Shown here one piece after another: positions 11,759-59,300 of a stretch of DNA of 64,000 nt. Below the pieces are notes generated by a model. That model was not told the origin of the DNA and searched no databases. It saw nothing but the letters and a program-made list of their open reading frames with translations. The first letter of the stretch is position 1. Each line of letters begins with the position of its first letter. The position numbers and the translations under genes were made by a program. Source of the stretch: Lachnospiraceae bacterium (GTDB lineage Bacteria; Pseudomonadota; Alphaproteobacteria; RF32; CAG-239); assembly GCA_963594125.1 (NCBI GenBank), contig CAVBCV010000003.1:22797-86796 (forward strand). The letters are read 5' to 3'.

Positions 11759-12211
11759 TTATTGCGCTTGTTCTTTAAATTTTAAGGCCTGCTGACGGGC
11801 GAGGGCGTCTACTCGCTCGTTTTCAGGGTGTCCGTTGTGACCTTTAACCCATACCCACCTGATTTCATGCGGTTTAATCAATTCATCAAGTTTAGTCCAT
11901 AAATCAACGTTTTTAACATCGCTCTTTTTATTGGCGGTTTTCCAGTTGTTGCGCTTCCAGTTTGGCAGCCACTCGTTAATGCCGTTCATTACATACTTGC
12001 TGTCAGTGTACAAGGTTATGTTGCAAACAGTTTTTAAGGCTTTTAACGCCTCAATTACCGCGGTTAATTCCATGCGGTTGTTGGTGGTATTGGCTTCGCC
12101 GCCGCTTAATTCTTTTTCAATATCTTTATGGCGTAATATAACGCCCCAACCACCGGCTCCGGGGTTGCCGGAACAAGCTCCATCAGTAAAAATTTCAACT
12201 CGTGCCGCCAT
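11759..12211 (-). CDS. rnhA: Ribonuclease HI
   Basis: 150 aa. Contains [33 protein letters not shown] and [15 protein letters not shown]. Confidence 0.95.
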
Positions 12212-12212
12212 G

Positions 12213-13277
12213 TTATTCGCTCTTCAAATACTCAGTAAAAAATTCGGTCAGCAGGCTTTCTTGCTCGTCTTCTTCGCGCAGAGCCTTAGCCACAAAAGAA
12301 CGCAGCTGATTTTTCGGAATAAAAATTCTGAAATCTTTGGGGACGGCTCCTTCCGCGCCGATAACGCCGTTAATGCACAAATCTTCTTCAATATAGGGCG
12401 ATAAAATTATCTGCACATTGGCAAATTTGAGCATACCGCGTGGGGGCAAGCGCAATTCGGGACGGGTAATTAAGTTGGTATGCCCGCTGATACCGGTTAA
12501 AGCATCCATTTGACTGTAATTTAAAAAGCGTACTTTGTTATATTCGCTGCCGGTAGATTCGGTGGTGCATGATAAATAAATTTCACGCGCTAAAGCGTTG
12601 CTTTGGTTATGCGCCTGAATTGAAAAGCCGATTTTAACATATTTTTCAGGCGGATTATCAATAGTTTTGGGGTAAAGCATATCTTCATCGGCGTTTTCTA
12701 AAATTTCAAGCGATTTATCTTTTAAGTCTAACTCAATATTAGGCTGCGGACGCTTGCCGAACATGCCGGCAATTACCGCGTATGGCGCCGGAACATTGTT
12801 AGAGCCGGAGCGAATGTAAATAGTGCTGTTGCCGGTGGTCATCAGCGGGGTTATCTCAGATTTAGGGATATAGGTGGCAATAAAGCCGTTGCCCTCCGCG
12901 TCAGAGCTGATAATATGGTTGCGGACTTTGTTGTGGCTCGGAATGGTGCAGCCGGATATGGCGCTTTCAAGCCAGCTTAAAAAGCGATGCACATTTTGGA
13001 CTTTAACTTTGGCTTTAGCGACATCGCCGATTTCAGTATCGCGGGAGCATTCAACACCCCAAATGACAACGCCGCCTTCAGAATTACCGAATCCGGAAAT
13101 AGCTTTAGCCAAATTTTTGCGGTCGTCACGGTGCAGGGTGTTAAAGTTTTTACCGGTTGAAACCGCTTGCTTAAAATCAAGGAACAACTCCTCGCTTTGC
13201 CGAGTTAAAATAAACTCATCAATGGCGTCTTCGCCAAAATAAATAAGTTTTTGAAAAATATCTTCCGCACGTGACAT
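12213..13277 (-). CDS. AlbA_2 / Schlafen-like domain protein with unknown C-terminal domain
   Basis: The N-terminal 170 aa match the AlbA_2 pattern: [29 protein letters not shown], and [12 protein letters not shown]. Its stop codon lies 1 nt from the rnhA start. Confidence 0.7.
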
Positions 13278-16816: not shown

Positions 16817-18067
16817 ATGCAAAATAATTCGGCGGACTATAAGGACTATAAAATTAAAATTGTGGTACTTGGGCGCCGAAAATCAGGCAAAACCAGTTTT
16901 ATCAGCCTGATAACCGGCAAAAATGCCGATATTGAAGGCAAGCCTTCTGCACTTGCCGCCGGAACTTATGAAATTACACAGCAAATGTATCCGATAGGTT
17001 CGCTGCTATGGTTTGATACAATAGGTTTTGGCGGCGGCAATACCAACATAAAAAATCAGCTTGATAGTTTGGCGCCGGTGTTAAATGCCGCTGATGCTGC
17101 GGTTTTGGTTTGCGAAGGCGATAAAATCGGCAAAATTGAGCGCGCTTTAATTACCAATTTGGAACTTAAGAGAATTCCGCTGATTGTGGTTTTTAATAAA
17201 GCCGATACGCATCATATCGGCGATACGGTTGGCGCAATTGCCGTAAATTCAACCGATTTACTCTCTCGCGACAAAGTTTTGTCGGAGTTAAAAGAAGCTT
17301 TAATCAGAGTTTGTCCGGAGGATTTATTAGTGCCGCCGGTTTTGCTCGGTGATTTAGCGCCAAGCGGCGGGCTTGTTATCATGTTGGTTGCAGATGATTA
17401 TAAAGCGCCGCAAGGGCGCCTGATATTGCCGCAGGTACAGGCAATCCGCGATTGTATTAATCACCGGCAGTCTGTTTTAACCGTTACGGAAAAAGAATAT
17501 GCCAACACTTTGAAAAAACTTAAAACTCCGCCGGATTTAGTAATTTGTGATTCTGACTTGGTAACAACAATGGTCGCGCAAACACCGCCTTCAGTTAAAT
17601 GCACCACATTTGCGGTTTTGACCGCGCGTATGCAGGGCGACCTGCAGCAAATGACTTCCGGCGCTTTGGCGTTATGGAAACTTAAAGATGGCGATAAAGT
17701 GCTGATTGCCGAGCCGTTTAAGCCGGAGGAGCTGAAAGATGATGTCGCCACTATTCAAATTCCGCGGCAAATATCCGAAAAAACCGGCAAAGACTTAGTT
17801 ATTGACCATTTTTTCGGCTCAGATTGTCCGATTGGGCTTGAAAATTACAATTTAGTAGTACATCGCGGACTACATCTTTCCAGTCGGCGCGAATATTTGG
17901 CAGAACAAAGCAGATGCGCCAGGGCTAATGTTCCGCTGACTAATTACAGCGTTTGTATTTCAGAATTGAATGGCGCGCTTGAAACCATTTTGCGACCGTT
18001 TCCAAATACGTTGGAGCGCTATAAACGCCGCCGCGATGAAATTTTAGCGACGGGACGGCGATTATAA
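16817..18067 (+). CDS. Degenerate HydF-like GTPase paralog lacking the [4Fe-4S] ligands
   Basis: Colinear with the HydF downstream. P-loop GRRKSGKT, DTIG and NKAD are kept. ESCTHH is replaced by EPFKPE and QCGGCM by HRGLHL. Confidence 0.7.
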   Translation: MQNNSADYKDYKIKIVVLGRRKSGKTSFISLITGKNADIEGKPSALAAGTYEITQQMYPIGSLLWFDTIGFGGGNTNIKNQLDSLAPVLNAADAAVLVCEGDKIGKIERALITNLELKRIPLIVVFNKADTHHIGDTVGAIAVNSTDLLSRDKVLSELKEALIRVCPEDLLVPPVLLGDLAPSGGLVIMLVADDYKAPQGRLILPQVQAIRDCINHRQSVLTVTEKEYANTLKKLKTPPDLVICDSDLVTTMVAQTPPSVKCTTFAVLTARMQGDLQQMTSGALALWKLKDGDKVLIAEPFKPEELKDDVATIQIPRQISEKTGKDLVIDHFFGSDCPIGLENYNLVVHRGLHLSSRREYLAEQSRCARANVPLTNYSVCISELNGALETILRPFPNTLERYKRRRDEILATGRRL

Positions 18068-18159: not shown

Positions 18160-19380
18160 ATGCAACAAACACCTAAAGGATTACGCCTGCAAATAGCTTT
18201 ACTCGGGCGGGTTAATGCCGGAAAATCCAGCTTTTTGAACTTAGTGACCGGACAAGATATTTCAATTACATCAGAAGTTGCCGGAACTACCACCGATGTG
18301 GTTGAAAAAGCGCAAGAACTTTTGCCGATTGGTCCGGTTTTGTGGCTTGATACCGCCGGTTTTGGCGATGAAACCAAACTTTCGGACAAACGACTGGAAA
18401 AAACGTTAAAGGTTTTAGACCGCGCCGATGTGGCGGTTTTGGTTTGTGAAGGCGATAAAATCGGCAAAATTGAGCGCCATATAATAGAGCAGGTAGAGGC
18501 AAAAAAAATTCCGCTGATTGTGGTGTTTAACAAGGCGGATATTCGCAAAATTAAAAATCCAGATGGCGCGATTGTTGTAAATTCATTGGATAAAAGCTCG
18601 CGTGATAAAGTTTTAAATGAACTTAAATCGGCCTTGATTAAAATTTGCCCTGATGAAGTGCTTAATCCTCCGGCATTGCTTGGCGATTTGGTGCCTCAGC
18701 ATGGAACGGTTATAATGATTGTGCCGATTGATTATGAGGCTCCAAAAGGAAGAATTATTTTGCCGCAGGTGCAAGCTATTCGCGATTGTTTGGATTATAA
18801 TCAGACTGTGATTGTGGTAAAAGAAAATGATTATGCGGCGGCATTGCAAAACTTAAAGAAAGCGCCTGATTTGGTAGTTTGCGATTCGCAAGTGGTTAGC
18901 AAAATGACGGTGGAAACTCCGGCAGATATTAAATGTACTACCTTTTCGGTTTTAATGGCACGCTTGAAAGGCGATTTAGATAAACTGGCTCAAGGCGCGG
19001 CGGCTATTTGGAAGTTGGAAGACGGCGATAGGGTGCTGATTGCCGAATCATGTACGCATCATGCCATGAAGGACGATATCGGCACGGTTAAAATTCCTAA
19101 CTTGTTAAAATTAAAGACCGGTAAAGATTTAATTATTGATCATGTTTCAGGTTGTGAGTTCCCGTATAATTTAGATAAATATAATTTGGTTATTCAGTGC
19201 GGCGGATGTATGCAAAATCGGCGCGAGATATTATCGCGTATAAATAAATGCGAACAGGTTAAGGTGCCGATTACTAATTACGGAATTTGTATTTCAGAGC
19301 TTAACGGCGTGTTAGCCAGGGTTTTGGAGCCGTTTGGCGATATTTATCAGCGTTATGCGGCGATGAAACCGACAAAGTGA
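18160..19380 (+). CDS. hydF: [FeFe] hydrogenase H-cluster maturation GTPase HydF
   Basis: 406 aa. Contains GRVNAGKSS, GTTTD, DTAG and NKAD. C-terminal cluster motif is CTHH...(Q)CGGC. Confidence 0.85.
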   Translation: MQQTPKGLRLQIALLGRVNAGKSSFLNLVTGQDISITSEVAGTTTDVVEKAQELLPIGPVLWLDTAGFGDETKLSDKRLEKTLKVLDRADVAVLVCEGDKIGKIERHIIEQVEAKKIPLIVVFNKADIRKIKNPDGAIVVNSLDKSSRDKVLNELKSALIKICPDEVLNPPALLGDLVPQHGTVIMIVPIDYEAPKGRIILPQVQAIRDCLDYNQTVIVVKENDYAAALQNLKKAPDLVVCDSQVVSKMTVETPADIKCTTFSVLMARLKGDLDKLAQGAAAIWKLEDGDRVLIAESCTHHAMKDDIGTVKIPNLLKLKTGKDLIIDHVSGCEFPYNLDKYNLVIQCGGCMQNRREILSRINKCEQVKVPITNYGICISELNGVLARVLEPFGDIYQRYAAMKPTK

Positions 19381-19416
19381 TTTTTTATTGTAACTTCAAA
19401 TTGTTATCGCAAAAAA

Positions 19417-19443
19417 CGATACAAGACGATACAAAAAGATACA
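19417..19443 (+). promoter_or_regulatory. Three helically phased (C)GATACA direct repeats, candidate regulator binding site
   Basis: GATACA begins at 19418, 19428 and 19438, an exact 10-bp period. The repeats sit just upstream of a putative -35. Confidence 0.35.
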
Positions 19444-19452
19444 TTTTTCTAC

Positions 19453-19481
19453 TTGTGAAAGCTATTTAATTAATCTTAATA
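19453..19481 (+). promoter_or_regulatory. Putative promoter of the 19522 gene
   Basis: TTGTGA, 17-nt spacer, TTAATA, in an AT-rich intergenic region. Confidence 0.35.
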
Positions 19482-19521
19482 TAAATTAGGATTGATTTTA
19501 ATATTTTATAAGGAGAAAACA

Positions 19522-20715
19522 ATGTTAGGAAAAACAAATTCAGTTGCTAAAAATGCGGGTGGGGCGACTCTCACCGCGGTAAACAAGACCGGCGCGGCTA
19601 TCAGCCAAGGCGACAAGGTGTGGATTAACAGCAATGTTCAGACCGCGGGCGGCAACTACAAGCTTGCCAACTATTCCGGCGGCTCGTCAATGTGTCCGGT
19701 CATCAGCCGTACCGGTAATTTCGGGTGGAATTACTCTGTCCTTTTAAGTATCGGGGCGGAGGCGGCGACCAATGTCGGCAGTTTTAGCGCAGAGTCAATG
19801 TGTATCCGTTATTTGGCGGATAGTAGTATGTTTCTTGGTAACAAACGGGTTGATGATACCGCGCAGTATGATATGGGATATTACCGTATACCGGTTGGCA
19901 ATGACTTATGCTATGGGTACGACAAAGGAACTAATAATTTCCATTTTTACAAAATAAATATGGCTAACGGCGAAATTTTGCAAACATGGGATATTGCAAC
20001 TGCTCCCACGTCCAGTACGTATAACAGCATGGCTTTAGTCGGCGACAAGATTTATGACGTGCGAGGCTCTAAGTATTATGAGCTTGGCGAAGATTCCTCA
20101 ATTACCGAAAGCACTTATACTTGGACTAATAAAGACACCAACACTATATTATATCCGGCGGGAGTAACCGCGGACGGCAAGTATATTATCTGTTCAACTG
20201 ATTATCGTTTTTCAAATCAAGATAACACGTTAGGTTCTTTGCGTTTGGTTGAAGTGCTAGACAGCTCGCGCCTTAAATGCTTGCAACAAACAGAAATGCC
20301 CGCGGATTTACAGCAGTTTTACAACGGAAGGTGTCATATGGTGTTTAACCCATACACCGGAATTTTGACGCTTGTTAAAAATAGAAGCACCACATACGCG
20401 GTTATGAAATATGCCGGCGGAGTTTGGAGCAAGCTTGCTTTTGATTTGAGCGGCTTTTTGGGTGATGAGTTTTGGCTTAAAGGCTCAATTACGGTTGCGG
20501 ACGATTTAAGCAGAGCATGCGTAAATTACAGCAAAAACAATACTTCCGCTGATTACACTTATTGGGCGCAGATTGTGAACATGAGCGATACCAGCGGCTA
20601 TGCGGCGGTGCCGTACAAGGCTTATAACGTTACGGCTGACACGGTAACCGGTTATGCCAAAGCCGCGGCAAGCACCGGTGCTTCTTTTGAGGCAAATGTG
20701 GCGAGTGTTGAATAA
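19522..20715 (+). CDS. Hypothetical protein, 397 aa, beta-rich, no signal peptide
   Basis: The ATG at 19522 is preceded by TAAGGAGAAAACA. The upstream extension in the ORF track starts at a non-ATG codon and lacks an SD sequence. I recognise no family. Confidence 0.65.
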   Translation: MLGKTNSVAKNAGGATLTAVNKTGAAISQGDKVWINSNVQTAGGNYKLANYSGGSSMCPVISRTGNFGWNYSVLLSIGAEAATNVGSFSAESMCIRYLADSSMFLGNKRVDDTAQYDMGYYRIPVGNDLCYGYDKGTNNFHFYKINMANGEILQTWDIATAPTSSTYNSMALVGDKIYDVRGSKYYELGEDSSITESTYTWTNKDTNTILYPAGVTADGKYIICSTDYRFSNQDNTLGSLRLVEVLDSSRLKCLQQTEMPADLQQFYNGRCHMVFNPYTGILTLVKNRSTTYAVMKYAGGVWSKLAFDLSGFLGDEFWLKGSITVADDLSRACVNYSKNNTSADYTYWAQIVNMSDTSGYAAVPYKAYNVTADTVTGYAKAAASTGASFEANVASVE

Positions 20716-20729
20716 AACAGCCTAAAGGC

Positions 20730-20767
20730 GGAAAGGAAAGGGGCGGAAACGTCCCTTTTTTATATGA
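20730..20767 (+). repeat. 38-bp repeat / terminator-like hairpin, copy A
   Basis: GGAAAGGAAAGGGGCGGAAACGTCCCTTTTT(T)ATATGA. An identical sequence apart from one T occurs at 26018..26054. It forms an 8-bp stem followed by a T-run. Confidence 0.8.
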
Positions 20768-20789
20768 TTTTTACGAAAGGAACGAATAA

Positions 20790-22814
20790 ATGAATGCGAT
20801 TGAACGTATTTGGCGAATCGGTCAGACCGGCGATGTGAACGACCCGCAGGAGCTTTCGCCGGTGGAAAACATTATGCGCAACTATCAGCTGCCGAAAGCA
20901 AGCGCCAACATGGCAAGCACGGCGCAAGCGCAGAATCAGCCGACAGATAACAGCATGTGGGGTAAATTTAAGAATTTTGCCGGAAGTAAAGGCGGTCGCA
21001 TGGTGCTGGGCGGGCTTGGCACTGCCGCCGCAGTCGGTTTAACCGGCGGAGGTTTGGGCGACGCGCTCGGATACGGCGTTATCGGCGCCGGAAATACCGC
21101 AAACACTATTTATAACAAAGAGCAAGACGCTTTAGGTTGGCTTGAAAAAGAAAAAGAGCGACAGGCGCGATTAAGTGACGCCAAAGCAAGCCGTGATGAA
21201 GCATGGCGCCGTTTGGAAGCCACGTTGCAGGCGCAAAAAGACGCGCGGCAAGCGCAGTATGACAACGCTGTCAATATGTTAAACTTCAATCGTGACTTGA
21301 AGCAAAAAGATTATGAGCGCGGGCGTCAGTGGCTTTTGGATAATCCAGACCTTGACGAGGATGCTCGCAAAAAGGCTTTACGAAGTTTAGACGCCGGATA
21401 TTACGGCGTGACTTTGCCGAATGCTGAGAAAGTGCCTCTTAAAGACTTTGCGCAAGCTATGGATTATCTGAACAAAGCAGGCGCCACTGCAGATTCGCGG
21501 AATAAGTATGCTGAAGGTCAAGGATATGGTATGCTTCAATTTGAGGATACCAGCAAAAAAGTCAGTGAAGCGCTTAATACATATAATGATTTAATAGCGC
21601 AAGGTTGGAGCGACGAAAACGCTCGCTATGCTTCAGGGCTGAAACAACTGCAAGATGACCTCGCTTTATATGAGGGCAAGAGCAACATTGACACTAACAA
21701 TAATATTAGGGCGCATGGCGTTAATGCCGGTGTTGATTTTGGGTATAAAGAACAAGGGGCGAATAATCAGCTTAACCGCGATGTGACTAAATCAAACCAC
21801 GATTTTGAACTTAAATTGTTGAACTCGGAATATGACAATGAATTAAAGAAAGATTTTGAGCAGTTTAAGGCTAATTTGCCGGTACAAACGGTACTTGCAG
21901 CTGAACAAAAGGCAGAGAGGTTGAAACGAGACGGTTATAATGTATCAGCCGGTGATATTATCGCGGAAGAATATTTGAATGCTCGCTTGAGTAACGAGAA
22001 TATTCAATCGCAGATTAATAGTCGCGAAACGACTCCGCAAATTATTAATGCGGAATGGCTGCAAAGCCATCCTGAGGCGCAAAATCTGCCGGTGTTTAAG
22101 ACTGGTACGAATGTTACGGTTAATAATGGTCAGAACAATAGCGAATTTGCCAAACAACAAGGCAAAAACATGGCTAACCGCTATGATGACTATCAAAAAG
22201 CCGGAGTGGCGGCGCTTGCGCAACTTGGTATTATTAACAACATGAAAGACGCTGTTAATAATCCGAGTGTTTATCAGGGTATCGGCGGTAATATGGTCAA
22301 TACTTTAAAAAGAGCACTATCTTCTGCCGGCTTTAATATTAATGGTTTAAGTGACGCAGCCATTATTGAATCGGGCAAATCGCAGTTGATGGGTGCTTTG
22401 CGCAAGGATTTAATGCCGGGACCGATGTCAGATAGAGATATTGAGTTTTTGGTGAACATTGTTCCTTCATTGGGTAAAACGCCTGAACAAAATAAAGCGA
22501 TTATAACTTTGTTTGAAAAAATATATCAACGCCAAGCGGAAGCGGCGGAATTTGTTAATAACTATACGATTGAACACGGTGTGTTTGACGCGCAAGGCGA
22601 GCGTGAATTGTATCAATTTACAAATCGCCCTATATTTACGGAAGAAGAAAAAGCGGCAGCCGCCGGACAAGCAGTTTCAGGAAACCAGAACGGCGGGCAA
22701 AATGCCGCAACCGGAGCAGATACGGTACGGATGGAAACGCCTGACGGGCAGATTGTGTTTGTTCCGCGAGAAGAAGTTGACGAGGCTATTAGCCACGGAG
22801 GGAGGATAGCATAA
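20790..22814 (+). CDS. Hypothetical 674-aa protein: N-terminal glycine-zipper hydrophobic segment, long coiled coil, C-terminal globular part
   Basis: Residues 64-102 read GSKGGRMVLGGLGTAAAVGLTGGGLGDALGYGVIGAG, followed by a Q/R/K/E-rich heptad-like region. Resembles phage ejection, pilot or tape-measure proteins (inference only). Confidence 0.65.
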   Translation: MNAIERIWRIGQTGDVNDPQELSPVENIMRNYQLPKASANMASTAQAQNQPTDNSMWGKFKNFAGSKGGRMVLGGLGTAAAVGLTGGGLGDALGYGVIGAGNTANTIYNKEQDALGWLEKEKERQARLSDAKASRDEAWRRLEATLQAQKDARQAQYDNAVNMLNFNRDLKQKDYERGRQWLLDNPDLDEDARKKALRSLDAGYYGVTLPNAEKVPLKDFAQAMDYLNKAGATADSRNKYAEGQGYGMLQFEDTSKKVSEALNTYNDLIAQGWSDENARYASGLKQLQDDLALYEGKSNIDTNNNIRAHGVNAGVDFGYKEQGANNQLNRDVTKSNHDFELKLLNSEYDNELKKDFEQFKANLPVQTVLAAEQKAERLKRDGYNVSAGDIIAEEYLNARLSNENIQSQINSRETTPQIINAEWLQSHPEAQNLPVFKTGTNVTVNNGQNNSEFAKQQGKNMANRYDDYQKAGVAALAQLGIINNMKDAVNNPSVYQGIGGNMVNTLKRALSSAGFNINGLSDAAIIESGKSQLMGALRKDLMPGPMSDRDIEFLVNIVPSLGKTPEQNKAIITLFEKIYQRQAEAAEFVNNYTIEHGVFDAQGERELYQFTNRPIFTEEEKAAAAGQAVSGNQNGGQNAATGADTVRMETPDGQIVFVPREEVDEAISHGGRIA

Positions 22815-25174
22815 TGAGTTATTGGGATAAATTTGAAAAAGAAGACAATTATTGGAGCCGGTTTGATAAAAACAAGCCGGCATTACGTCCGATGACTGAA
22901 AGCCAAAAGGCGGAAGCGCTTAATTTGGCGCGGCAAATCAGACCGAAGACCGATAATACTTTTGGCGATTATTTAGCGCAAAATGTGGCTGATATGGCTT
23001 ATGGCGCCGATAGGGCGTTATCAGGGGCGACTTTTGGAGCTTATGACTGGCTTAAAAGAAAAACCGGATTAGGCGTTAATCAAGACGAATATATGGCGAT
23101 GAAGCGCTATAATGACGGAAGCGACATGCCGGCAACCGCTGCCGGTGTTGTTGCGGAAATCGGCGGTAATATTACCGGTGCCGGTGGCGCTTTGGCCAGA
23201 GGTTTGAGCAAAGCGGGGCTAAAAGGCTTAAAGCTGGCAAGCGCGGCGGGCGGCTTGGAGGGCGCCGCTTATGGTGTAACCGGTTCTGACACTTTGGGCG
23301 ATTTACCGAAAAATATTGCTTTAAGCGGAACACTTGGCGCTGGAATGGGCGCGGGTATGCCGTATCTGCTTAAACCGGCAACAAAGTTAGTACGCCCGGT
23401 GGCGGATAAAATTTCAAGTACTTATAATGCAGGAAAAGAATTGTTAAAAGCCAAAAGACAATTAAATCAGTTGACAAATGATCCAGATGTTGGTATTGTC
23501 AAAAATATATGGAATAAAGTAACAGGAAATGGAAAATCAATAAATGATATTCTCTATGAAGAAAATCAAAGGTTGGCTAGACAAGCGGCGAAAGCAGAAA
23601 AAATTAAAACGGCAAGAAGAAATACGCCGGAAAATAGCTATACTAGACAAGAAGTTTCCGGACTGGGAAGTTTGGGGTCTGGATATAGGGGACGCTGGGA
23701 GGCTGGAAAAAATGTAAAAGGCGCAGTAAATGCGCCTTTATCTTTTAATGAATACTTTCCAAATAAAGAAAATGGTAATCGTTTTTATCAGGCCATGTCT
23801 GCTTTCAAGAAAGGAGCCGGGGCAAAAGGTGAACAGGTTTATCAATATAGTCCTGAAGAATATGCAAAAATGCGAACATTCTTAACTGATGATGGCAAAA
23901 CAGGCTTTGCGCTTAAAGATGATGGCGATATTGTTTCAGTATTTAACGGGGGAGCTAAAGGTGGTATTGATTCTATAATGCCTGCCGCCACTTCCGCTGG
24001 TGGCACTAAGTTAGATGCTTATGATACCTTTTTACCTGGGGAATATTCTCGGCATGGTTTTAAGGAAATTAGTCGCGATATGTGGAATGAGCAATTCGCA
24101 CCAAATAGATGGAATAAAAAAGCGATGAGAAAATTTAACCTAGGCGAGCCTGATGTTGTTTATATGGAATATGATCCTAGTTATTATGGTAATTATCAAT
24201 CGCCAAATAGTTTGCAAAATGTTATTAACCGTTTGCAGGATAATATCAAAAATTCAAAAGAAGCAATTAGAAATGTTTGGCAACCACAACAGTCAATTAA
24301 AGGTGACCAAATAAACCGTTCTTTTGTTGAGGCGTTAGCAAACAGGGATAAAGCAAGAATTATGCGCAACGGTGTGTTGTCAGGGGCAAGTGATTTGTCG
24401 GAACGGGCGCGTATTTTGCAAGACAATCTGGCACGGCGTAAAAATGGTTGGTTTGATGCTGATTTTGAAAAACTGATTAAAACCCCGGAAATGGCAAAAG
24501 CTGAAGTTTCGTATGCTCAGTTTATGGCTAAAAACGGCGGAAAAACACTTGCGCCGGAAAAGGTAAATAGTTTTTATCAAAATCACCCGATTGCCAAAGA
24601 TATAATTGCCGAAATGCGAGAGGTTGATCCGCGAGCTTTTGATAATATAGCTCCGGGAAGTTTGGCAGAATTTGATATGCTGAAGAAAATATTGCGTGAA
24701 GAAGCCGGAAATAAAATTAAAGTCGGCGCTTCAAAGTCAGGTGCCTTGAAAAGAGCTGAAAATTCATTAAAAGAATTAATGGATACAGAGTTTCCGGGAT
24801 TTAAGGATATTAACACTAAATACGCGGAAGCGACTTCTGCTCAAAATATCTTTGAGAGTAAGTTAAATCAAGGCTTGACTTCAGTTGGCGGCGGAACGGC
24901 AAATGTAACCCCGTTTTGGAGCGGAATATCAAGTCCTCTGACCGCTGCCGGTGTTGTGGGCGGCTTTTTTAATCCGATGTCATTGGCGGTAACTGGTGCC
25001 GGTTTGGCTGGTAAAGCTTTGATGCGTAACAGCCGACGCGCTGCCGCGCGGCGTTTGGCTGACGGAATAGTGCGTACACCAATTAATGTTGATATTAATC
25101 CGGTGTTTACAAATGGCTTGTCAGCACCGGCATTAAGAGCTGCATCAGATTATCAAAATAAACAATGGTATTAA
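22814..25174 (+). CDS. Hypothetical 786-aa protein with Gly/Ala-rich hydrophobic segments at both ends and a central GNAT-like region
   Basis: TAATG overlap with the upstream gene and a GGAGGGAGGA SD sequence. Residues 105-185 and 735-765 are glycine-zipper-like. Residues about 340-420 (GFALKDDGDIVSVFNGGAKGG...YSRHGFKEI) resemble an acetyltransferase fold. That last point is weak. Confidence 0.65.
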   Translation: MSYWDKFEKEDNYWSRFDKNKPALRPMTESQKAEALNLARQIRPKTDNTFGDYLAQNVADMAYGADRALSGATFGAYDWLKRKTGLGVNQDEYMAMKRYNDGSDMPATAAGVVAEIGGNITGAGGALARGLSKAGLKGLKLASAAGGLEGAAYGVTGSDTLGDLPKNIALSGTLGAGMGAGMPYLLKPATKLVRPVADKISSTYNAGKELLKAKRQLNQLTNDPDVGIVKNIWNKVTGNGKSINDILYEENQRLARQAAKAEKIKTARRNTPENSYTRQEVSGLGSLGSGYRGRWEAGKNVKGAVNAPLSFNEYFPNKENGNRFYQAMSAFKKGAGAKGEQVYQYSPEEYAKMRTFLTDDGKTGFALKDDGDIVSVFNGGAKGGIDSIMPAATSAGGTKLDAYDTFLPGEYSRHGFKEISRDMWNEQFAPNRWNKKAMRKFNLGEPDVVYMEYDPSYYGNYQSPNSLQNVINRLQDNIKNSKEAIRNVWQPQQSIKGDQINRSFVEALANRDKARIMRNGVLSGASDLSERARILQDNLARRKNGWFDADFEKLIKTPEMAKAEVSYAQFMAKNGGKTLAPEKVNSFYQNHPIAKDIIAEMREVDPRAFDNIAPGSLAEFDMLKKILREEAGNKIKVGASKSGALKRAENSLKELMDTEFPGFKDINTKYAEATSAQNIFESKLNQGLTSVGGGTANVTPFWSGISSPLTAAGVVGGFFNPMSLAVTGAGLAGKALMRNSRRAAARRLADGIVRTPINVDINPVFTNGLSAPALRAASDYQNKQWY

Positions 25175-25294
25175 CGTTAAGCCGCCTTTTGGGGCGGCTT
25201 GGCAAATTAAATCCGGCGGCTGTTTCTGCGCCATTTTATAAAAACTATTGATTTTATGCTCCAAATAAAGTATCATAATAATAAAGGAGGAACA

Positions 25295-25450
25295 ATGGCT
25301 GTTATTGTTTGGTTTGTGCTTTTTTGGACTATGGTGTACATATTTATAGAGTTGTTCAATTCTGTAAAAGAGCAAATCATAGATTATAAAATGCTCAGAA
25401 AGGCTGGCAGAGGTCGCATATACAGCTTTATAAAAGCTATTTTTGGATGA
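25295..25450 (+). CDS. Small single-pass membrane protein (51 aa)
   Basis: AAAGGAGGAACA precedes the ATG. Hydrophobic N-terminus VIVWFVLFWTMVYIFI and a basic C-terminus. Confidence 0.5.
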   Translation: MAVIVWFVLFWTMVYIFIELFNSVKEQIIDYKMLRKAGRGRIYSFIKAIFG

Positions 25451-25509
25451 TATAATTATTCATAAATAAAGAAACTAACAGTAACTGTATGGCATATAGA
25501 TAAATATCA

Positions 25510-25710
25510 ATGGCGGAAATGAAAATATTTTTAAATGGTATAAAAGAGTTTTGTAAACTATGCCTTATTGGCTTTTTCGTATCGCTTATAGTTATCGGGT
25601 TGCCGGGGGCTATAATGTTGTCGTGGGGTGATGAAGAAAATATTGAACGGTGTATGCAAGAGTTTCCGGAGCGAACGTATGATGAATGCGAAAGCGCCGT
25701 TGCTTGGTAG
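25510..25710 (+). CDS. Small single-pass membrane protein (66 aa) with four Cys
   Basis: TM segment CLIGFFVSLIVIGLPGAIML and an acidic Cys-containing tail. Confidence 0.45.
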   Translation: MAEMKIFLNGIKEFCKLCLIGFFVSLIVIGLPGAIMLSWGDEENIERCMQEFPERTYDECESAVAW

Positions 25711-25898
25711 CAGATTTTATGGAGATGGTAACTGTGAAGAAATGGTGTCTAAATTTGTCCGTGAAAATGCCTCGCACGATGAAAATTGTGGACAGAGTGT
25801 TTAATTTTTTGGAATGGCTGACAAAACCAAAGGTAATGGTGTTGTTTTGTTTGCTTTGGCTTGTTATTGCTTATTGTCTTGTTATGGCAGGGTATTAA
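25686..25898 (+). CDS. Small C-terminally anchored membrane protein, start uncertain
   Basis: TM segment VMVLFCLLWLVIAYCLVMAG. Several candidate internal starts. A strong terminator follows. Confidence 0.35.
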   Translation: MRKRRCLVADFMEMVTVKKWCLNLSVKMPRTMKIVDRVFNFLEWLTKPKVMVLFCLLWLVIAYCLVMAGY

Positions 25899-25946
25899 GA
25901 CATCAACACAAACGCCGTTTGGTAGCGGGGTTTAATTTTTTTACGC

Positions 25947-25970
25947 AAGAGGCTTAAAGCCTCTTTTTTT
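25947..25970 (+). terminator. Rho-independent terminator ending the 20790-25898 operon
   Basis: AGAGGC-TTAA-GCCTCT stem-loop followed by T7. Confidence 0.7.
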
Positions 25971-26017
25971 ATGAAAGAACAAATAATAATTTAGTGTACC
26001 CGTATCAGTTTGAAAGT

Positions 26018-26054
26018 GGAAAGGAAAGGGGCGGAAACGTCCCTTTTTATATGA
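26018..26054 (+). repeat. 38-bp repeat / terminator-like hairpin, copy B
   Basis: Same sequence as 20730..20767 minus one T. Confidence 0.8.
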
Positions 26055-26132
26055 ATATATGCGAGCACGCGGCTTGTAAAATTAAGGTTAGTGATTATTA
26101 TAAAACAGAGAGTGATTTTTATGGAGGGGAAA

Positions 26133-26507
26133 ATGGAGTTTTTTATTTGTAATCACTGCGGCAATATTATAACTTTTGTGCACAATTCCGGCGCGCCGGT
26201 TTCATGTTGCGGGGATTTTATGCAAAAAATTACGGAAAATACGGTTGACGCCTCGGCTGAAAAGCATGTGCCGGTTATTAAACAAAAAGGAAACAATGTG
26301 GTGGTTAAAATTGGCAGTATTCCGCATCCGATGGAGCCTAAGCATTATATTATGTGGATTGTATTGGAAACAAAATCAGGCTATCAATTCAAACGTTTAA
26401 GACCAGGCGAGGCGCCGGAAGCTATTTTTGAGCTTTCAGCTGATGATGAAGTTGTAAAAGCTTATGAATATTGCAATATTCACGGGCTTTGGAGCGTCGC
26501 TTTGTAA
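26133..26507 (+). CDS. dfx: Desulfoferrodoxin (2Fe superoxide reductase)
   Basis: 124 aa counted from the ATG after GGAGGGGAAA. N-terminal CNHCGN...CCG rubredoxin-like centre. C-terminal KHVPVI, HPM, H.I.WI and EYCNIHGLW. Confidence 0.9.
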   Translation: MEFFICNHCGNIITFVHNSGAPVSCCGDFMQKITENTVDASAEKHVPVIKQKGNNVVVKIGSIPHPMEPKHYIMWIVLETKSGYQFKRLRPGEAPEAIFELSADDEVVKAYEYCNIHGLWSVAL

Positions 26508-26607: not shown

Positions 26608-26696
26608 GGAGAGTTGGCAGAGTGGTAATGCAGCGGATTGCTAATCCGTCATCGTGTTAAAGCGATGCACAGGTTCGAGTCCTGTACTCTCCGCCA
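26608..26696 (+). tRNA. tRNA-Ser (anticodon GCU), CCA encoded
   Basis: Acceptor stem GGAGAGT/ACTCTCC. Anticodon loop TTGCTAA. Long variable arm CATCG..CGATG. T-loop GGTTCGAGTCC. 3' GCCA. Confidence 0.95.
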
Positions 26697-26727: not shown

Positions 26728-26742
26728 TTTCCGACATATACC

Positions 26743-26764
26743 GGTTAGTACAGGACGCGAACCT
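26743..26764 (-). repeat. Inverted partial copy of the tRNA-Ser 3' end (T-arm and acceptor)
   Basis: The reverse complement AGGTTCGCGTCCTGTACT matches the tRNA sequence AGGTTCGAGTCCTGTACT at 17 of 18 positions. Confidence 0.6.
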
Positions 26765-26788: not shown

Positions 26789-27049
26789 ATGAACATATTT
26801 GCTGAAATTATCGGCTATATTGCCGGATTATGTATTGCCACTTGTTTTTTGCCGCAGACTTTGCAAACCATTAAAAGTAAAAATGTAAAAGACTTGTCAT
26901 TGATAAGCTATATCATCTATTGCACCGGAATGATTTGTTGGGTGATTTACGGCATATATTTACACTCAGTACAGATGATTCTGTTTAATTTAATTTCGCT
27001 TTATTTTGCCGGTACTATTTTATACATGATTGTTCGGTACAAAAAATAA
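26789..27049 (+). CDS. SemiSWEET / PQ-loop family small transporter
   Basis: 86 aa with three TM helices and an LPQ motif in TM1 (CFLPQTLQTIKSK). Confidence 0.75.
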   Translation: MNIFAEIIGYIAGLCIATCFLPQTLQTIKSKNVKDLSLISYIIYCTGMICWVIYGIYLHSVQMILFNLISLYFAGTILYMIVRYKK

Positions 27050-27093
27050 ACTTTAAAAACAACCGGTTAGTCTGCCATTGGGCGGGCTTGCGA

Positions 27094-27133
27094 CCACCCC
27101 GCCTTCGGCACTCCTCCATAGAGGGTAATTTTT
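27094..27133. repeat. REP-like element, copy 3 (degenerate first hairpin)
   Basis: CCACCCCGCCTTCGGCACTCCTCCATAGAGGGTAATTT. Confidence 0.7.
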
Positions 27134-27145
27134 AATTGCGGATTT

Positions 27146-27243
27146 AAATACAACTTATGCACAGCATGGACTCGTAAATATTGCAAAAAAAAAACGCGAG
27201 CTAAAATCTTCTCAAAATTAACATTTTGAAAGGATTTTAGCTC
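27146..27243 (+). promoter_or_regulatory. Shared promoter/leader element, copy 2, drives the pilin-like gene
   Basis: Homologous to the reverse complement of 5981..6078. TTGCAA (27181-27186), A10 tract (27185-27194), TAAAAT (27202-27207), hairpin arms 27200-27217 / 27224-27241, then ATG at 27244. Confidence 0.6.
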
Positions 27244-28071
27244 ATGTATACATATTTTAACCGCTTTTTACACTACATGCTGTCACACTCCGATGCAGAA
27301 CCGCAGTCCACCCCTATGTTGTCATATTCGGGCTTGACCCGAATATCCAGGTGGGGCAAATTTGCTAATTGGTTTGACCTGGACACTCCGATCAAGTCGG
27401 AGTGTGACAGTATGGGGAAGGACGCATCGCTCAAGCCCGATGGTGACAACATAGAGAATGTTGGTCGGTCTATGGTAGAGATGCTGGGCGTGCTCGCGAT
27501 TATTGGAGTTTTAAGCGTTGGGGCGATAAGCGGTTATAGCAAAGCAATGTTTAAGTATAAGCTTAACCGGCATGCGGAAGCGGTTAATATGCTTATAAAT
27601 AATGTGCTGCAACTCAAAGGGCAGCTGCTAATCGGGCAAAATGAAGAAAAATGTTACGGCACCTTGTTTAAACAAATAAATTTGATACCGGACGGAATAA
27701 ATTATCGCAATAACTGCCAATTAGAAGATAGCTTCTTTAACGGTAATATAAAAATTTATCGTAATACTCAGAAACAGCAAAATTTTGGCGGCTTGTGTTT
27801 TTATTTACCGGTATCATCGCAAGGCGAGGAGATATGCCGTAATATTTTGTTTGCCGCTAAAGAAAATGCTGATAATTTATGGATAGTTGAACTTATAAAA
27901 TATATGTCTGATTCCAGTGTGGAATATTCTGAAAAATCTATTTACGGCAATAATTATTGCAATCAAGGTGACAAATGTTTGTATAACATGACGCTTAATG
28001 ATACGGAAGTTCTTTGTAATGTATGTGACGGAGTGTCATGTGGTTTGTGCGTGTTAATGAGCTATAAATAG
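27244..28071 (+). CDS. Prepilin-type N-terminal cleavage/methylation-domain protein (pilin or pseudopilin-like), start uncertain
   Basis: Class III signal G/RSMVEMLGVLAIIGVLSVGAISG, with Glu at +5, sits at residues 75-97. In-frame alternative starts exist at 27412 and 27472. The first 70 codons are occupied by a palindromic element. Confidence 0.6.
   Translation: MYTYFNRFLHYMLSHSDAEPQSTPMLSYSGLTRISRWGKFANWFDLDTPIKSECDSMGKDASLKPDGDNIENVGRSMVEMLGVLAIIGVLSVGAISGYSKAMFKYKLNRHAEAVNMLINNVLQLKGQLLIGQNEEKCYGTLFKQINLIPDGINYRNNCQLEDSFFNGNIKIYRNTQKQQNFGGLCFYLPVSSQGEEICRNILFAAKENADNLWIVELIKYMSDSSVEYSEKSIYGNNYCNQGDKCLYNMTLNDTEVLCNVCDGVSCGLCVLMSYK
27281..27454. repeat. Nested/interleaved palindromic element inside the 5' end of the pilin-like ORF
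   Basis: A perfect 13-nt inverted repeat (IR): 27281-27293 / 27397-27409. A 24-nt IR matching at 21 of 24: 27314-27337 / 27431-27454. Local hairpins at 27324-27346, 27347-27382 and 27383-27405. Confidence 0.75.
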
Positions 28072-56393: not shown

Positions 56394-59300
56394 TTACCTC
56401 AGCTGGAGAACAACCTCGCCTTTGTAGGTCACGGTCAGAGTGCCATCGTCGGAAACTGCGAATGTATAACCATCAACCTTGGTTGAATAGTTGCCATTGC
56501 GCCAGTTCCACATCTTGAGGGTCGTGAAACGAATATTACGAGCGCCAGTATTCTGGTCGCGATAATAACCGATACGATCCGTCAGATCTTTGGCGATTGC
56601 AGGTGCCCACTTGTTGACAGCATAGGAGCCCCTGTTGCTGTTACTTGTGTAATACCCGGAATTATACTCTGGACCGAAGGTTCCTTTGCAGAAGTATCCA
56701 TTAAGAATATCCTGCACCGCCGGAGCCTTGGCGTTCATATCGGCGATGATGGCGACAGATCCCTTCTCAGTTCTGAGGTTAAAGCACTTCTGCGCATATT
56801 CACCTCTTACCTGATCTGCAGGAACTGCTGTAACAGCCATGCCAATAATCTTGCCCCAGTCTTCAGGGATGATCCTGTTGATCGGCTTAACGATAGCTAT
56901 TTTAGCAGCTGCTGATGCAGATGCCTGATAGTTACCGCCGGAGATTACATAATTGGTGCTGATCTTGTTCTGATAATCATATACAAGATAAGTTGTACCA
57001 TTCTGTGTGGTCTCCGTTGCCTGTGAGGAAACGCTTGAGCCTGCCTCGCTGAAGTTCCAGTTGGCGTAGTCAAAAGTGACTGTGTAGTATCCTGTCGGAT
57101 CTACATAAACCGCCTTCTGATAATCATACGAGTAGACATTGTTGAACGGATTAACGCCGTTGGTAGCAGTTGAACTGTACCTCATTGAGCGTGTTGTTAT
57201 CGTCCAATTTCCGTCCTTGCTTGGGCTCTCACTGATTTGTGAACTTCCGTTGCTCTTGGTGGAATAACTGTTGTTCACAGTATATACCCACTGGAGAGCC
57301 GGTTCGCTGAGGTGGCGTGAAAGGTTCTTGGTGATAGTGTTTGTTTTCTCACCTGAAACCGACCATGTCTCAACTTCCGTGAAGGAAATTCTCTCAGTAT
57401 TGGCGTTAACGATCTCTCTCTTGACGTCCCTGTAGGATTTGCTCACAAGCTTGTCCTCCGGCTTAGGCTTAACGATAGCTATTTTGGCAGTTGCGGACGC
57501 AGAAGCCTGATAGTTACCGCCGGAGATTACATAATTGGTGCTGATCTTGTTCTGATAATCATATACAAGATAAGTTGTACCATTCTGTGTGGTCTCCGTT
57601 GCCTGTGAGGAAACGCTTGAGCCTGCCTCGCTGAAGTTCCAGTTGGCGTAGTCAAAAGTGACTGTGTAGTATCCTGTCGGATCTACATAAACCGCCTTCT
57701 GATAATCATACGAGTAGACATTGTTGAACGGATTAACGCCGTTGGTAGCAGTTGAACTGTACCTCATTGAGCGTGTTGTTATCGTCCAATTTCCGTCCTT
57801 GCTCGGGGTCTCACTGACCTGAGATGATCCGTTACTCTTGGTGGTATAACTGTTGTTCACAGTATAAATCCACTGGAGAGCCGGTTCGCTGAGGTGTCTG
57901 GTCAAATTCCTGGTGATAGTGTTTGTCTTTTCACCACTAACCGACCATGTCTCAACTTCCGTGAAGGAAATTCTCTCAGTATTCGCGTTAACGATCTCGC
58001 GCTTCATATTCCGGTATGACTTGCTGACGAGCTTGTCCTCTCTGGTCTGGACGTACAGCATTCGCTGATAAGGAACTGCCACGCGATAGGTGGTAACTTC
58101 CTCACCGGATGCCTTAGTTTTAGCCTTAGAATCGTTCTTGACAACGTCAAGATCGTAATAAAGCGTTACATCGGCAACCTTGCGATTGGCTGTGGACGCC
58201 TGTTCATTCAACTTGGCATCAGCTCTTACGAATCTGATGTTTTGCACAGCTGAATAAGTCAGAGCCTTGTCCAAATAGGTGAGATACTCGTAGACGGAAC
58301 TGTTAGACACAGTCTCGCCTGCGTTGAGCTGATAGCTCCTCGCAAATGTACGAGTTGTGGTTCTGAAATTACCGTTTGAGCTAATATTCACCTTATCGTC
58401 ACCAATCGTGGTGTTGACAAGTTGAACATTCGTCAAATCGGATTCTTTCTCCACCCAAACTTCAGAGTCCACCTCAAAGGTAGAACCGAGGTTGAGGTCA
58501 GCCGAAACTCTTTTGCGGCTGATTTCTTCGTCATTTTTGTAGCGAACCTCTTCAGCGGTAACCCTTTGTTCATCAGTGACAAGTTTTTTGGTTTTTGCCT
58601 CAAACTCACCGATGTAGGTGTCATTCTCCAGTTTGGTCTCGTAATTGTCCGGAACCTGTACGTGCTTGTGAATGCGGGTGTACGGAACTCTGATTAGATA
58701 ATCCGCAATCTTAGCGCCATTCTCACGTACCAGTGTTGCAACAAAGAACAAATGGACGGTGTTGACGGTGCTATCCGCATTGGACAATGCCGTATTTCTA
58801 ACGGACTTGCTGTGAGAGTAAGCAATGTTGCTAATCTCTGCGTGTGCAAGAGTGCTATCGCCATAAGCGAGTGCCTCATACGCCGCGTTGATATATACTC
58901 TCTCACCCTCATTGAAGCTGAACGAATAGTTCTGTTGATATGAGGATTTAACAAATCTACCGTTAGTACCGGCGATTGAGCGTGTCAGGTTATCCTTGGA
59001 CTGCGCGGTAAGCGCAACCAAGTTCAGCGCGTTGTCACTGCTAACCCAAAGCTTGTTCGGGCTGATAGTGGCGTCGGCTCTGAGATTTAAGTCCTCGCGG
59101 AAGCTTTCTTTACGCAGGATGTCGGCGTTGTTGTACGAAACAACCATGCCGGCAACATTTTGCTTTACCGTAAACAGCTTGCACACGGTGGTGTCAAACT
59201 GAGCAGCAAAGGTAATGTTTTCCAGACGCTTGTAAAAATTGTCCGGAAGTTTACCGCTCTTATAGATGCGCTGCGTAGGAACACGAACGAGCGTGTCACG

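Follow-up and report, generated by a model that had tools for sequence, protein, structure and literature searches.

The stretch between hydF and dfx in an uncultured gut alphaproteobacterium (deposited as Lachnospiraceae bacterium, assembly GCA_963594125.1, contig CAVBCV010000003.1; GTDB lineage RF32, CAG-239) raises the question of what a string of six open reading frames (ORFs) without a Pfam match is, and how it came to lie there. The string consists of three large ORFs, ORF1, ORF2 and ORF3, and of three small ones, s1, s2 and s3. We examined it in a window that comprises 64 kb of the 91.7-kb contig; positions are those of the window unless another contig is named. The initial annotation of the window had placed the six ORFs, the TAATG overlap of ORF2 and ORF3 and a terminator at 25947 correctly, and had read the whole block as a domesticated module, a divergent mobile element or a secreted effector system. 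None of these three readings is supported: the string from ORF1 to s1 occurs in temperate phages of 32-36 kb, and the 5.3-kb part of the block from ORF2 onward is absent from nine related contigs and is bounded by a duplicated terminator and a deletion scar, not by att sites. Instead, the block is very probably a defective prophage fragment that sits on a persistent phage-derived gene, ORF1, for a putative receptor-binding protein (RBP); its source is an uncultured family of podophages whose portal and adaptor are of the SU10 type.

Phage genomes with the same gene string

Searches of a collection of 5.8 billion proteins returned numerous homologues of ORF1, ORF2 and ORF3. Three of the contigs that carry them, L010 and L011 (both 35.7 kb) and L012 (32.6 kb), are genomes of temperate podophages and share one gene order: Terminase_3, portal, Phage_capsid_4, SU10_adaptor, genes for proteins of 529, 130 and 208 amino acids (aa), an exchangeable slot, homologues of ORF2 and then of ORF3, a 51-aa gene, Bro-N, a 374-aa gene, Phage_lysozyme and Phage_integrase. 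The portals of L010 and L011 match the SU10_portal family. In all three phages the ORF3 homologue begins on the last base of the ORF2 stop codon, and in the window, too, the two genes overlap by one base, in CATAATG.

For comparison with the window, 21.9 kb of each reference phage contig were used (tblastn, tblastx and blastn). The three phages match the window only at 19559-25475, and there in phage gene order; the rest of the 64-kb window has no match to the 21.9 kb of L010 or L012. At the protein level, L012 is identical to the window at 40% of positions for ORF1 (a 393-aa homologue), 57% for ORF2 and 95% for s1, while ORF3 has 86% identity over the N-terminal 211 aa and 98.6% over the C-terminal 285 aa. 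Across the three phages, ORF2 is 49-57% identical to the window and s1 is 94-95% identical to the 51-aa gene that follows the ORF3 homologue. The nucleotide identity to L012 is 92-97% in three parts of the window (20614-21789, 22692-23367 and 24322-25460). A further phage contig, L014, encodes a 786-aa ORF3 that is 99% identical. Four others (L031-L034) share the order of adaptor … slot, ORF2 and ORF3; the 51-aa gene comes next in L031, L033 and L034 and is followed by Bro-N in L031 and L033. More distant ORF3 homologues (64%) end the tail module of prophages in metagenome-assembled genomes (MAGs) named 'Alphaproteobacteria bacterium', with a faint P22_portal match.

Deposited phages offer few relatives: the portal had only two matches among 50,697 phage records, both at about 22% identity, tblastn of ORF1 found nothing, and ORF2 had only four marginal matches, to Vibrio phages. 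By the portal comparison the phages form a family without a close cultured relative. Pfam has no match for ORF1-3, for s1-s3 or for the homologues tested, PHROGs has only two families of unknown function for ORF3 (phrog_5880 and phrog_2563), and scans of IMG/VR with ORF1 and ORF3 returned nothing. The initial statement that no virion or integration gene is recognisable in the block agrees with the empty Pfam result for ORF1-3. It had also been considered that the block could be the tail end of an ordinary prophage: it does correspond to the end of a phage virion module, but the remaining phage genes are not in the window; they were deleted or never transferred. The tests run on the window detected no gene that serves replication, packaging, lysis or integration. 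The flanks of the block consist of host genes in an order shared with the sister loci, and a sample of ten ORFs from the rest of the window has either cellular Pfam families (AcrB, FtsX/MacB-type permease, DNA polymerase III δ', MltB-type transglycosylase, HflX, RNase J, TPR-methyltransferase and PQ-loop protein) or no match, and none is viral.

Two features of the phage loci lie close to ORF3. A hairpin, AACGTTAAGCCGCCTTTTGGGGCGGC, follows ORF3 (window 25174-25200) and occurs again after Bro-N in L012 (L012 14001-14030 and 15170-15200). The copies bracket an insert of s1, or of s1 and Bro-N, which is absent in L014 and looks like a moron cassette between repeated terminators. In the prophages with the faint P22_portal match (L006 12327-16967; L009 12228-15320), the ORF3 homologue is followed by tandem paralogues, which share only the N-terminal module of ORF3 (aa 13-280) or are separate genes for an N-module and a C-module; this layout resembles that of polymorphic, cassette-swapping loci.

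The locus in related bacteria and the origin of the segment

Nine related contigs were available: five sequencing-run assemblies (L001-L005), one NCBI genome (L013) and three GTDB representative genomes (L016, L017 and L019), the latter named uncultured Alphaproteobacteria or Proteobacteria bacterium, with L017 being a human-gut MAG. All nine keep ThiF, two hydF genes and an intact homologue of ORF1, with dfx next in line (the end of L016 falls inside ORF1, and on the upstream side L004 and L016 stop short of argS). ORF2, ORF3 and s1-s3 are absent from every one of them. The block therefore does not form the single 6.5-kb island that had been proposed but has two layers: ORF1 with its terminator is general at this locus, while a 5.3-kb segment, from ORF2 to s3 plus a stub of a phage gene, belongs to this strain. 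The comparison of sister genomes that had been suggested gave different answers for the two parts, with ORF1 present in all nine and the 5.3-kb segment in none.

The ends of the segment are marked. The terminator of ORF1 has an identical sequence in phages L010 and L012 and in the sister loci. Sister loci have one copy of it and the window has two (20718-20760 and 26006-26048), which form a direct repeat of 43 nucleotides (nt), 31 of them identical, with a spacing of 5288, bracketing ORF2 to s3. The right copy is preceded directly by what is left of the phage 374-aa gene, a stub that has lost its ATG through a gap of about 12 nt and is 80% identical over 40 nt (blastn) to L012 15216-15255 and L014 7773-7812. 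Stub and terminator are joined at a GGCGG/AAAGG microhomology (GGCGG, then A-rich, in both), and the right junction reads as a microhomology deletion scar. This junction is not present in the phages, which argues against a simple assembly chimera.

One more locus has been rearranged. In L020, another Alphaproteobacteria MAG, positions 1-1910 hold an ORF1 homologue, a truncated terminator, about 280 bp without a match, s2 (92% nt identity) and a variant of s3, but no ORF2, ORF3 or s1. L020 is a second, independent rearrangement at this locus. An exact-sequence look-up of ORF2 found only a 3-kb contig, broken at the repeat. Contigs of 13.0 kb that bear ORF1 were considered as a small circle or as a dimer of a 6.5-kb island; they are chromosomal argS-to-dfx fragments that break at the tRNA.

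The order of events that we infer starts with ORF1 and its terminator as an old phage-derived gene between hydF and dfx in this lineage. Its 5' anchor region and its 3' end with the terminator are nearly identical in chromosome and phage, so that infecting or lysogenising phages can recombine with the locus and ORF1 alleles swap. In this strain, recombination would have begun in the shared ORF1 3' end and terminator and carried in ORF2, ORF3, s1-s3 and the start of the tail-fibre-like 374-aa gene, which together make up the inserted segment at about 20.76-26.05 kb of the window. Either the whole phage entered by a single crossover (Campbell-type) and then suffered an internal deletion of about 27 kb, or a linear fragment was joined directly; by both routes the right end would have been sealed at the GGCGG/AAAGG microhomology beside the second terminator copy. 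In the chromosome the fragment is probably inert, except as a substrate for recombination, because a strong terminator lies ahead of ORF2 and a scan for promoters is at chance level.

Several points weigh against this account. All genes of the fragment are intact and full length, which leaves room for a retained function. Whether this strain gained the segment or all the others lost it is a matter of deduction, and the junctions are known from metagenome assembly alone. Among the phage loci compared, s2 and s3 matched no phage contig. Finally, the comparison covered only 64 kb of the 91.7-kb contig and 21.9 kb per reference phage, with the phage early genes outside.

If the direction were reversed, the arrangement of the window would be ancestral: an old stump of ORF1, ORF2, ORF3 and s1-s3 would have been general, and the sisters would have lost 5.3 kb between the terminator copies. 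A direct repeat of 31-43 nt is what such a deletion needs, the sister loci keep one copy, and the position of s2 and s3 directly after ORF1 and a truncated terminator in L020 indicates that deletions do occur here. We nevertheless regard an ancestral stump as distinctly unlikely, as ORF2, ORF3 and s1 are 92-97% identical at the nucleotide level to present-day phages, where an old stump is expected to have diverged or decayed, while the flanking hydF differs from the sisters at a synonymous divergence (dS) of about 0.6; moreover, all nine sister contigs, the three GTDB representatives (L016, L017 and L019) included, lack the segment. The intact ORFs and the glycine-zipper segments of ORF2 and ORF3, which recall pore formers, could also fit a phage-derived module that has been domesticated for injection or as a toxin or bacteriocin, or else a new system of secreted effectors; the small membrane proteins would then be immunity or holin partners. 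The best Foldseek rows of ORF3 are indeed α-pore-forming toxins and colicins, but with E = 0.4-3 and a TM-score below 0.1 they are at chance level and meaningless; Pfam and PDB reveal no toxin domain, and Pfam families for secretion, lysis or toxins have no match among the six ORFs. As, in addition, a strong terminator splits ORF1 from ORF2, the identical gene string is found in complete temperate phages, and the segment is absent from the sisters and bounded by a recombination scar, a module of this kind is highly improbable. We give even less credence to a tiny, divergent mobile element or satellite that is autonomous and sits near tRNA-Ser. Such an element would agree with the restriction of the segment to this strain, with the direct repeats on either side and with the tRNA gene nearby, but the segment contains no integrase, replication or packaging gene, and its genes form one unbroken stretch of a larger phage genome; the repeats at its ends are copies of a phage terminator and not a tRNA-derived att site, and dfx lies between block and tRNA. 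The defective prophage fragment remains the preferred explanation of the segment.

The coordinates of the block are listed in Table 1. Homology to phage L012 begins at 19559, beyond the spacer between hydF and ORF1, and L020 aligns with window 19477-19630 at 81%. The G+C content does not set the block apart. Strong Shine-Dalgarno sequences had been reported for the block, which holds for ORF1, ORF3 and s1 (AAGGAG/GGAGGA-type) but not for ORF2, which has a weaker AAAGGA. Likewise, the supposed AT-rich promoter region is AT-rich, but the scan for promoter-like sites gave 14 sites versus 15.4 expected by chance. A second terminator, stronger than that after s3, lies directly 3' of ORF1 (20734-20761) and has a stem of 12 pairs. 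The 51-aa phage homologue of s1 has one strong transmembrane segment (Kyte-Doolittle 2.3), and s2 and s3 have one strongly hydrophobic segment each (2.5-2.8).

Table 1. Features of the block between hydF and dfx (window positions)
Feature	Position	Strand	Remarks
hydF–ORF1 spacer	19381-19521	+	AT-rich, holds the ORF1 Shine-Dalgarno sequence AAGGAG; chromosomal, not phage-derived
ORF1	19522-20715	+	397 aa from ATG (407 aa from upstream TTG)
ORF1 terminator and left direct-repeat copy	20718-20767	+	also the native RBP–ORF2 spacer of the phage
ORF2	20790-22814	+	674 aa; putative ejection/internal virion protein
ORF3	22814-25174	+	786 aa; putative ejection protein
ORF3 central cassette	23576-24313	+	α/β domain common to giant polyvalent proteins
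s1	25295-25450	+	51 aa from the ATG used by phage homologues, one transmembrane segment; small phage moron gene
s2	25510-25710	+	66 aa, single transmembrane segment
s3	25686-25898	+	70 aa, single transmembrane segment, overlaps s2
Intrinsic terminator after s3	25947-25965	+	hairpin
Stub of the phage 374-aa tail-fibre-like gene	25966-26012	+	ribosome-binding site region and about codons 5-14
Right direct-repeat copy of the ORF1 terminator	26006-26055	+	fused to the stub; chromosomal dfx upstream region next

To the right of the block lie dfx (26133-26507) and tRNA-Ser(GCT) (26608-26696); the block had been described as next to tRNA-Ser, and it is dfx that separates the two. A phage attP that matches this tRNA was considered, and the phage loci contain no tRNA-Ser match. 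The 3' end of the tRNA is repeated in inverted orientation 48 nt downstream (26671-26693 and 26742-26764), and L013 has a direct duplication of 87 bp of the tRNA region, with the second copy about 220 bp away (11913-11998 and 12135-12221); past integrations at the tRNA could have left these repeats as scars. Breaks in several sister contigs fall at tRNA-Ser. Downstream of it, window 26789-28071 encodes two proteins, an 86-aa PQ-loop protein and one of 275 aa that has a pilin-like hydrophobic segment but no Pfam match. The spacer from dfx to the ABC transporter is 1659 bp in the window and 767 bp in L013, and this stretch varies among relatives. On the other side of the block, two tandem hydF paralogues (16817-18067 and 18160-19380) are about 50% identical and are kept as a pair in all sister loci; both have the HydF dimerisation and tetramerisation domains, and the first has the weaker match to the GTPase domain. 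The hydF of L016 (7586-8806) has one internal stop codon, which may be a sequencing error, a frameshift or the mark of a pseudogene. A 1189-aa ORF on the minus strand (56394-59963), with no Pfam match at E ≤ 1e-5, lies among housekeeping genes.

The ORF1 gene in chromosomes and phages

An AlphaFold2 model of ORF1, built with 56 homologues, is all-β (pLDDT, the predicted local distance difference test, 88; pTM, the predicted template modelling score, 0.88), and from it the fold is confidently predicted to be a seven-bladed β-propeller. In Foldseek, the model matches generic propellers of the WD40/YVTN/lactonase type with a TM-score of about 0.45, several uncharacterised Caudovirales propeller proteins among them; sequence and profile searches of the PDB gave no match. 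Remote-homology and structure searches, which the initial annotation had recommended, were run on the large proteins and yielded a generic propeller for ORF1 but no match for ORF2 and ORF3.

In the phages, the position of ORF1 is a slot with changing content. The slot of L012 (L012 8328-9925), just upstream of the ORF2 homologue, consists of a 133-aa gene and the 393-aa ORF1 homologue. In L010 (8252-9926), L014 and L034 it is filled by an LRR_5 protein (454 aa in L010) and a 99-aa gene, and in L031 (3715-4654) by a Tlde1_dom protein (164 aa) and a 92-aa gene. This receptor-binding slot hence holds at least three unrelated cassettes, and the slot genes of L012 and L010 share their last codons and the terminator. 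Within ORF1, the N-terminal 37 residues (ATVTAVNKTG…GDKVWIN) are nearly invariant; elsewhere, alleles are 28-81% identical. L028 and L029 match only residues 1-62. The exchangeable slot, the invariant N-terminus followed by a variable rest, and the genomes that match residues 1-62 only all suggest that ORF1 is a phage receptor-binding or tail-fibre protein.

The chromosomal copies of ORF1 are all intact, with a ratio of nonsynonymous to synonymous substitution rates (ω) of 0.11-0.33, compared with about 0.06 for hydF. Between the window and four sisters, dS is 0.54-0.60 for ORF1 and 0.59-0.62 for hydF; these equal values at first seemed to support vertical descent. Other pairs are incongruent: between L013 and L017, dS is 0.66 for ORF1 versus 0.32 for hydF, and between L005 and L019 it is 0.17 for ORF1 versus 0.04 for the flanks. 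The chromosomal allele of L005 and L019 shares 88-90% of its amino acids and 90-92% of its nucleotides with the allele of phage L012, but is only 44% identical to that of the window. Conversely, the allele of L036, which is of the window type but extended by 34 aa at the N-terminus, has phage genes around it and lies two genes upstream of a lysozyme gene; this phage-borne allele nests among the chromosomal ones. The incongruent sister pairs and the nested allele of L036 weaken the idea of ORF1 as a vertically inherited domesticated gene. We conclude that ORF1 is a fixed feature of the hydF–dfx locus and has been exchanged with phages repeatedly. Of a housekeeping complex conserved at this locus across the lineage, the possibility against which the block had initially been set, only the conservation applies, and only to ORF1, which is phage-derived and not part of such a complex.

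A bolder reading is that the host keeps ORF1 under purifying selection and that the gene is active in phage–host conflict, which we consider unlikely. If it were true, ORF1 may poison or redirect the virion assembly of related phages; alternatively, it would be a chromosomal landing pad and allele bank, at which phages swap host-range cassettes and sometimes leave late genes behind, the window being a case in point.

ORF2 and ORF3 as putative ejection proteins

ORF2 has a glycine-zipper-like segment (aa 64-102) followed by a long, probably helical region. In ORF3, two conserved modules, N (aa 1-~230) and C (aa 502-786), enclose a centre that varies, and the C module contains a glycine-rich hydrophobic hairpin. 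The Gly/Ala-rich hydrophobic stretches that had been described are present in both, but they are only moderately hydrophobic (Kyte-Doolittle 1.06-1.41): with a 19-residue window, ORF2 peaks at 1.41 (aa 71-100) and ORF3 at 1.06-1.31 (aa 109-128, 168-186 and 701-733), where the classical threshold is 1.6. The two proteins do share a design, as proposed, but homology between them is undetectable, and a BLASTP comparison of ORF2 and ORF3 as potential paralogues gave E = 0.8.

Homologues of ORF2 are 49-83% identical and lie, in L010-L012, L014 and L031-L034, always between the RBP slot and the ORF3 homologue; one of them is named Caudoviricetes sp. by its source. The contigs with ORF2 and ORF3 homologues carry the SU10-type portal and adaptor, and the downstream 374-aa gene is tail-fibre-like. 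The phage 208-aa protein ends in a motif of MWGK and a glycine zipper (MWGK…Gly-zipper), the same motif that opens the hydrophobic stretch of ORF2, which makes it a candidate third member of the set.

In podoviruses, the genes of ejection proteins are clustered, and as their sequences have very little in common, they are recognised from size and synteny; gp15-like proteins have 431-982 aa and gp16-like proteins 609-1337 aa, with hydrophobic helices toward the C-terminus, and domains are swapped (PMC8954989). SU10 has five ejection proteins, gp20-24, which leave the head on genome release (PMC9509320). By analogy, ORF2 and ORF3 are most likely ejection (internal virion) proteins: they are two coupled large genes between tail or RBP genes and a tail-fibre-like gene, they have moderately hydrophobic, glycine-rich segments and a mosaic domain make-up, and they fit the description of podovirus ejection proteins. 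The resemblance to phage ejection or pilot proteins seen in the initial annotation was a good lead, as the homologues occupy the corresponding position in complete podophage genomes. In the phage, ORF2 and ORF3 would be carried inside the head and leave it before the DNA does, their glycine-zipper segments would insert into the envelope to form a trans-periplasmic conduit, and the optional cassette of ORF3 would be an enzyme-like cargo delivered into the host.

Other observations speak against an ejection role. Neither ORF2 nor ORF3 has a sequence or structure match to experimentally characterised ejection proteins, and neither has a match in the PDB by single-sequence or profile searches. The model of ORF3 is poor (pLDDT 53.5), and because of this its Foldseek matches, all at E > 0.3, were discarded. 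The two could instead be virion proteins of another kind, such as tail-needle, tail-extension, tail-lysin, head-decoration or scaffold-like proteins: their genes are surrounded by tail genes, the searches revealed no homology to known ejection proteins, and one ORF2 homologue (P0219) weakly matches the C-terminal part of phrog_26675, which is named 'endolysin'. Lytic domains, however, are also part of genuine ejection proteins, for example T7 gp16 and SU10 gp20. Coupled large genes with glycine-zipper segments of conditional membrane affinity fit internal, ejected proteins better than an external tail, and the exchangeable internal cassette of ORF3 is of a kind found in injected polyvalent or MuF-type proteins; another virion role is therefore rather unlikely, and ejection remains the favoured function.

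ORF3 proteins of phages have 496, 508, 693, 696 or 786 aa, with the cassette-free forms (496-508 aa) in L031-L034, which indicates that the centre is an optional cassette. The cassette of the window (aa ~255-500) matches 3059 representative proteins at E ≤ 0.001, and many of the matches sit mid-chain in proteins of 2000-4200 aa. Two of the three giants tested contain Pfam LPD22 and/or LPD23; LPD marks large polyvalent proteins. In Microbacterium phage UtzChips, the cassette is the C-terminus of a 'minor capsid protein' that adjoins the portal gene, and Streptomyces phage records label it 'acetyltransferase'. A GNAT fold was not confirmed: Pfam and PDB were negative, even with a profile of 19 sequences, and Foldseek was uninformative on the poor model of the whole protein. 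A β-β-β-α-β-α-β pattern at aa 354-421 and a YSRHGF motif, both read from the sequence, are compatible with GNAT. Families of GNAT occur in polyvalent proteins and as solo late genes and are predicted to be packaged and injected (Iyer et al., PMC5512222). From its matches, the cassette appears to belong to the domain repertoire of polyvalent proteins. ORF3 might then stand for a whole class of ejection proteins into whose centre effector cassettes from this repertoire are plugged; this is the less radical part of the bolder reading, which as a whole we consider unlikely.

How do the block and its proteins compare with known systems? ORF2 and ORF3 resemble T7 gp14/15/16, P22 gp7/20/16 and SU10 gp20-24 in being consecutive, coupled and beside tail or fibre genes. 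As in podovirus ejection proteins, their sizes (674 and 786 aa) are within the gp15-like and gp16-like ranges, hydrophobic segments lie near the C-terminus, and the proteins are mosaic (PMC8954989). To the ejection proteins of T7, P22 and SU10, however, ORF2 and ORF3 have no detectable sequence or fold similarity, and no small gene with several transmembrane segments like T7 gp14 was identified, although the phage 208-aa protein is a candidate. The ORF3 cassette is like polyvalent and MuF-fused effectors (PMC5512222) in that it recurs in proteins of 2000-4200 aa and is optional and exchangeable; unlike these, it lies in the middle of a putatively membrane-active, ejection-type protein and is neither appended to MuF nor part of a giant multi-enzyme protein. 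Its GNAT identity comes from the depositors' names and the secondary-structure pattern only, with Pfam and PDB negative.

Cryptic prophage remnants, for example those of E. coli K-12, keep tail-fibre genes and recombine with infecting phages. The block is similar: it represents one uninterrupted part of a phage late operon and has no functions for replication, packaging, lysis or integration, its presence varies by strain, and there are signs of allele exchange with related phages at the receptor-binding gene. It differs from such remnants in its host, an uncultured, low-GC gut alphaproteobacterium, in a phage family without cultured relative, in being anchored by an ORF1 that is intact in every genome examined, and in being flanked by a duplicated terminator and not by att sites.

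For the search for new systems this is a clean negative: the apparent orphan island is a slice of an ordinary temperate phage and not a new class of toxin or mobile element. At the same time, the data outline an uncultured family of temperate podophages, with SU10-type portal and adaptor, that infects gut Alphaproteobacteria, and they assign a tentative role, as ejection proteins, to two families without a Pfam or PDB match or a named PHROG function, ORF2 and ORF3, the latter with a plug-in cassette that polyvalent proteins also have. A phage RBP gene that persists intact at a fixed chromosomal site and exchanges alleles with phages bears on the evolution of host range in gut phages.

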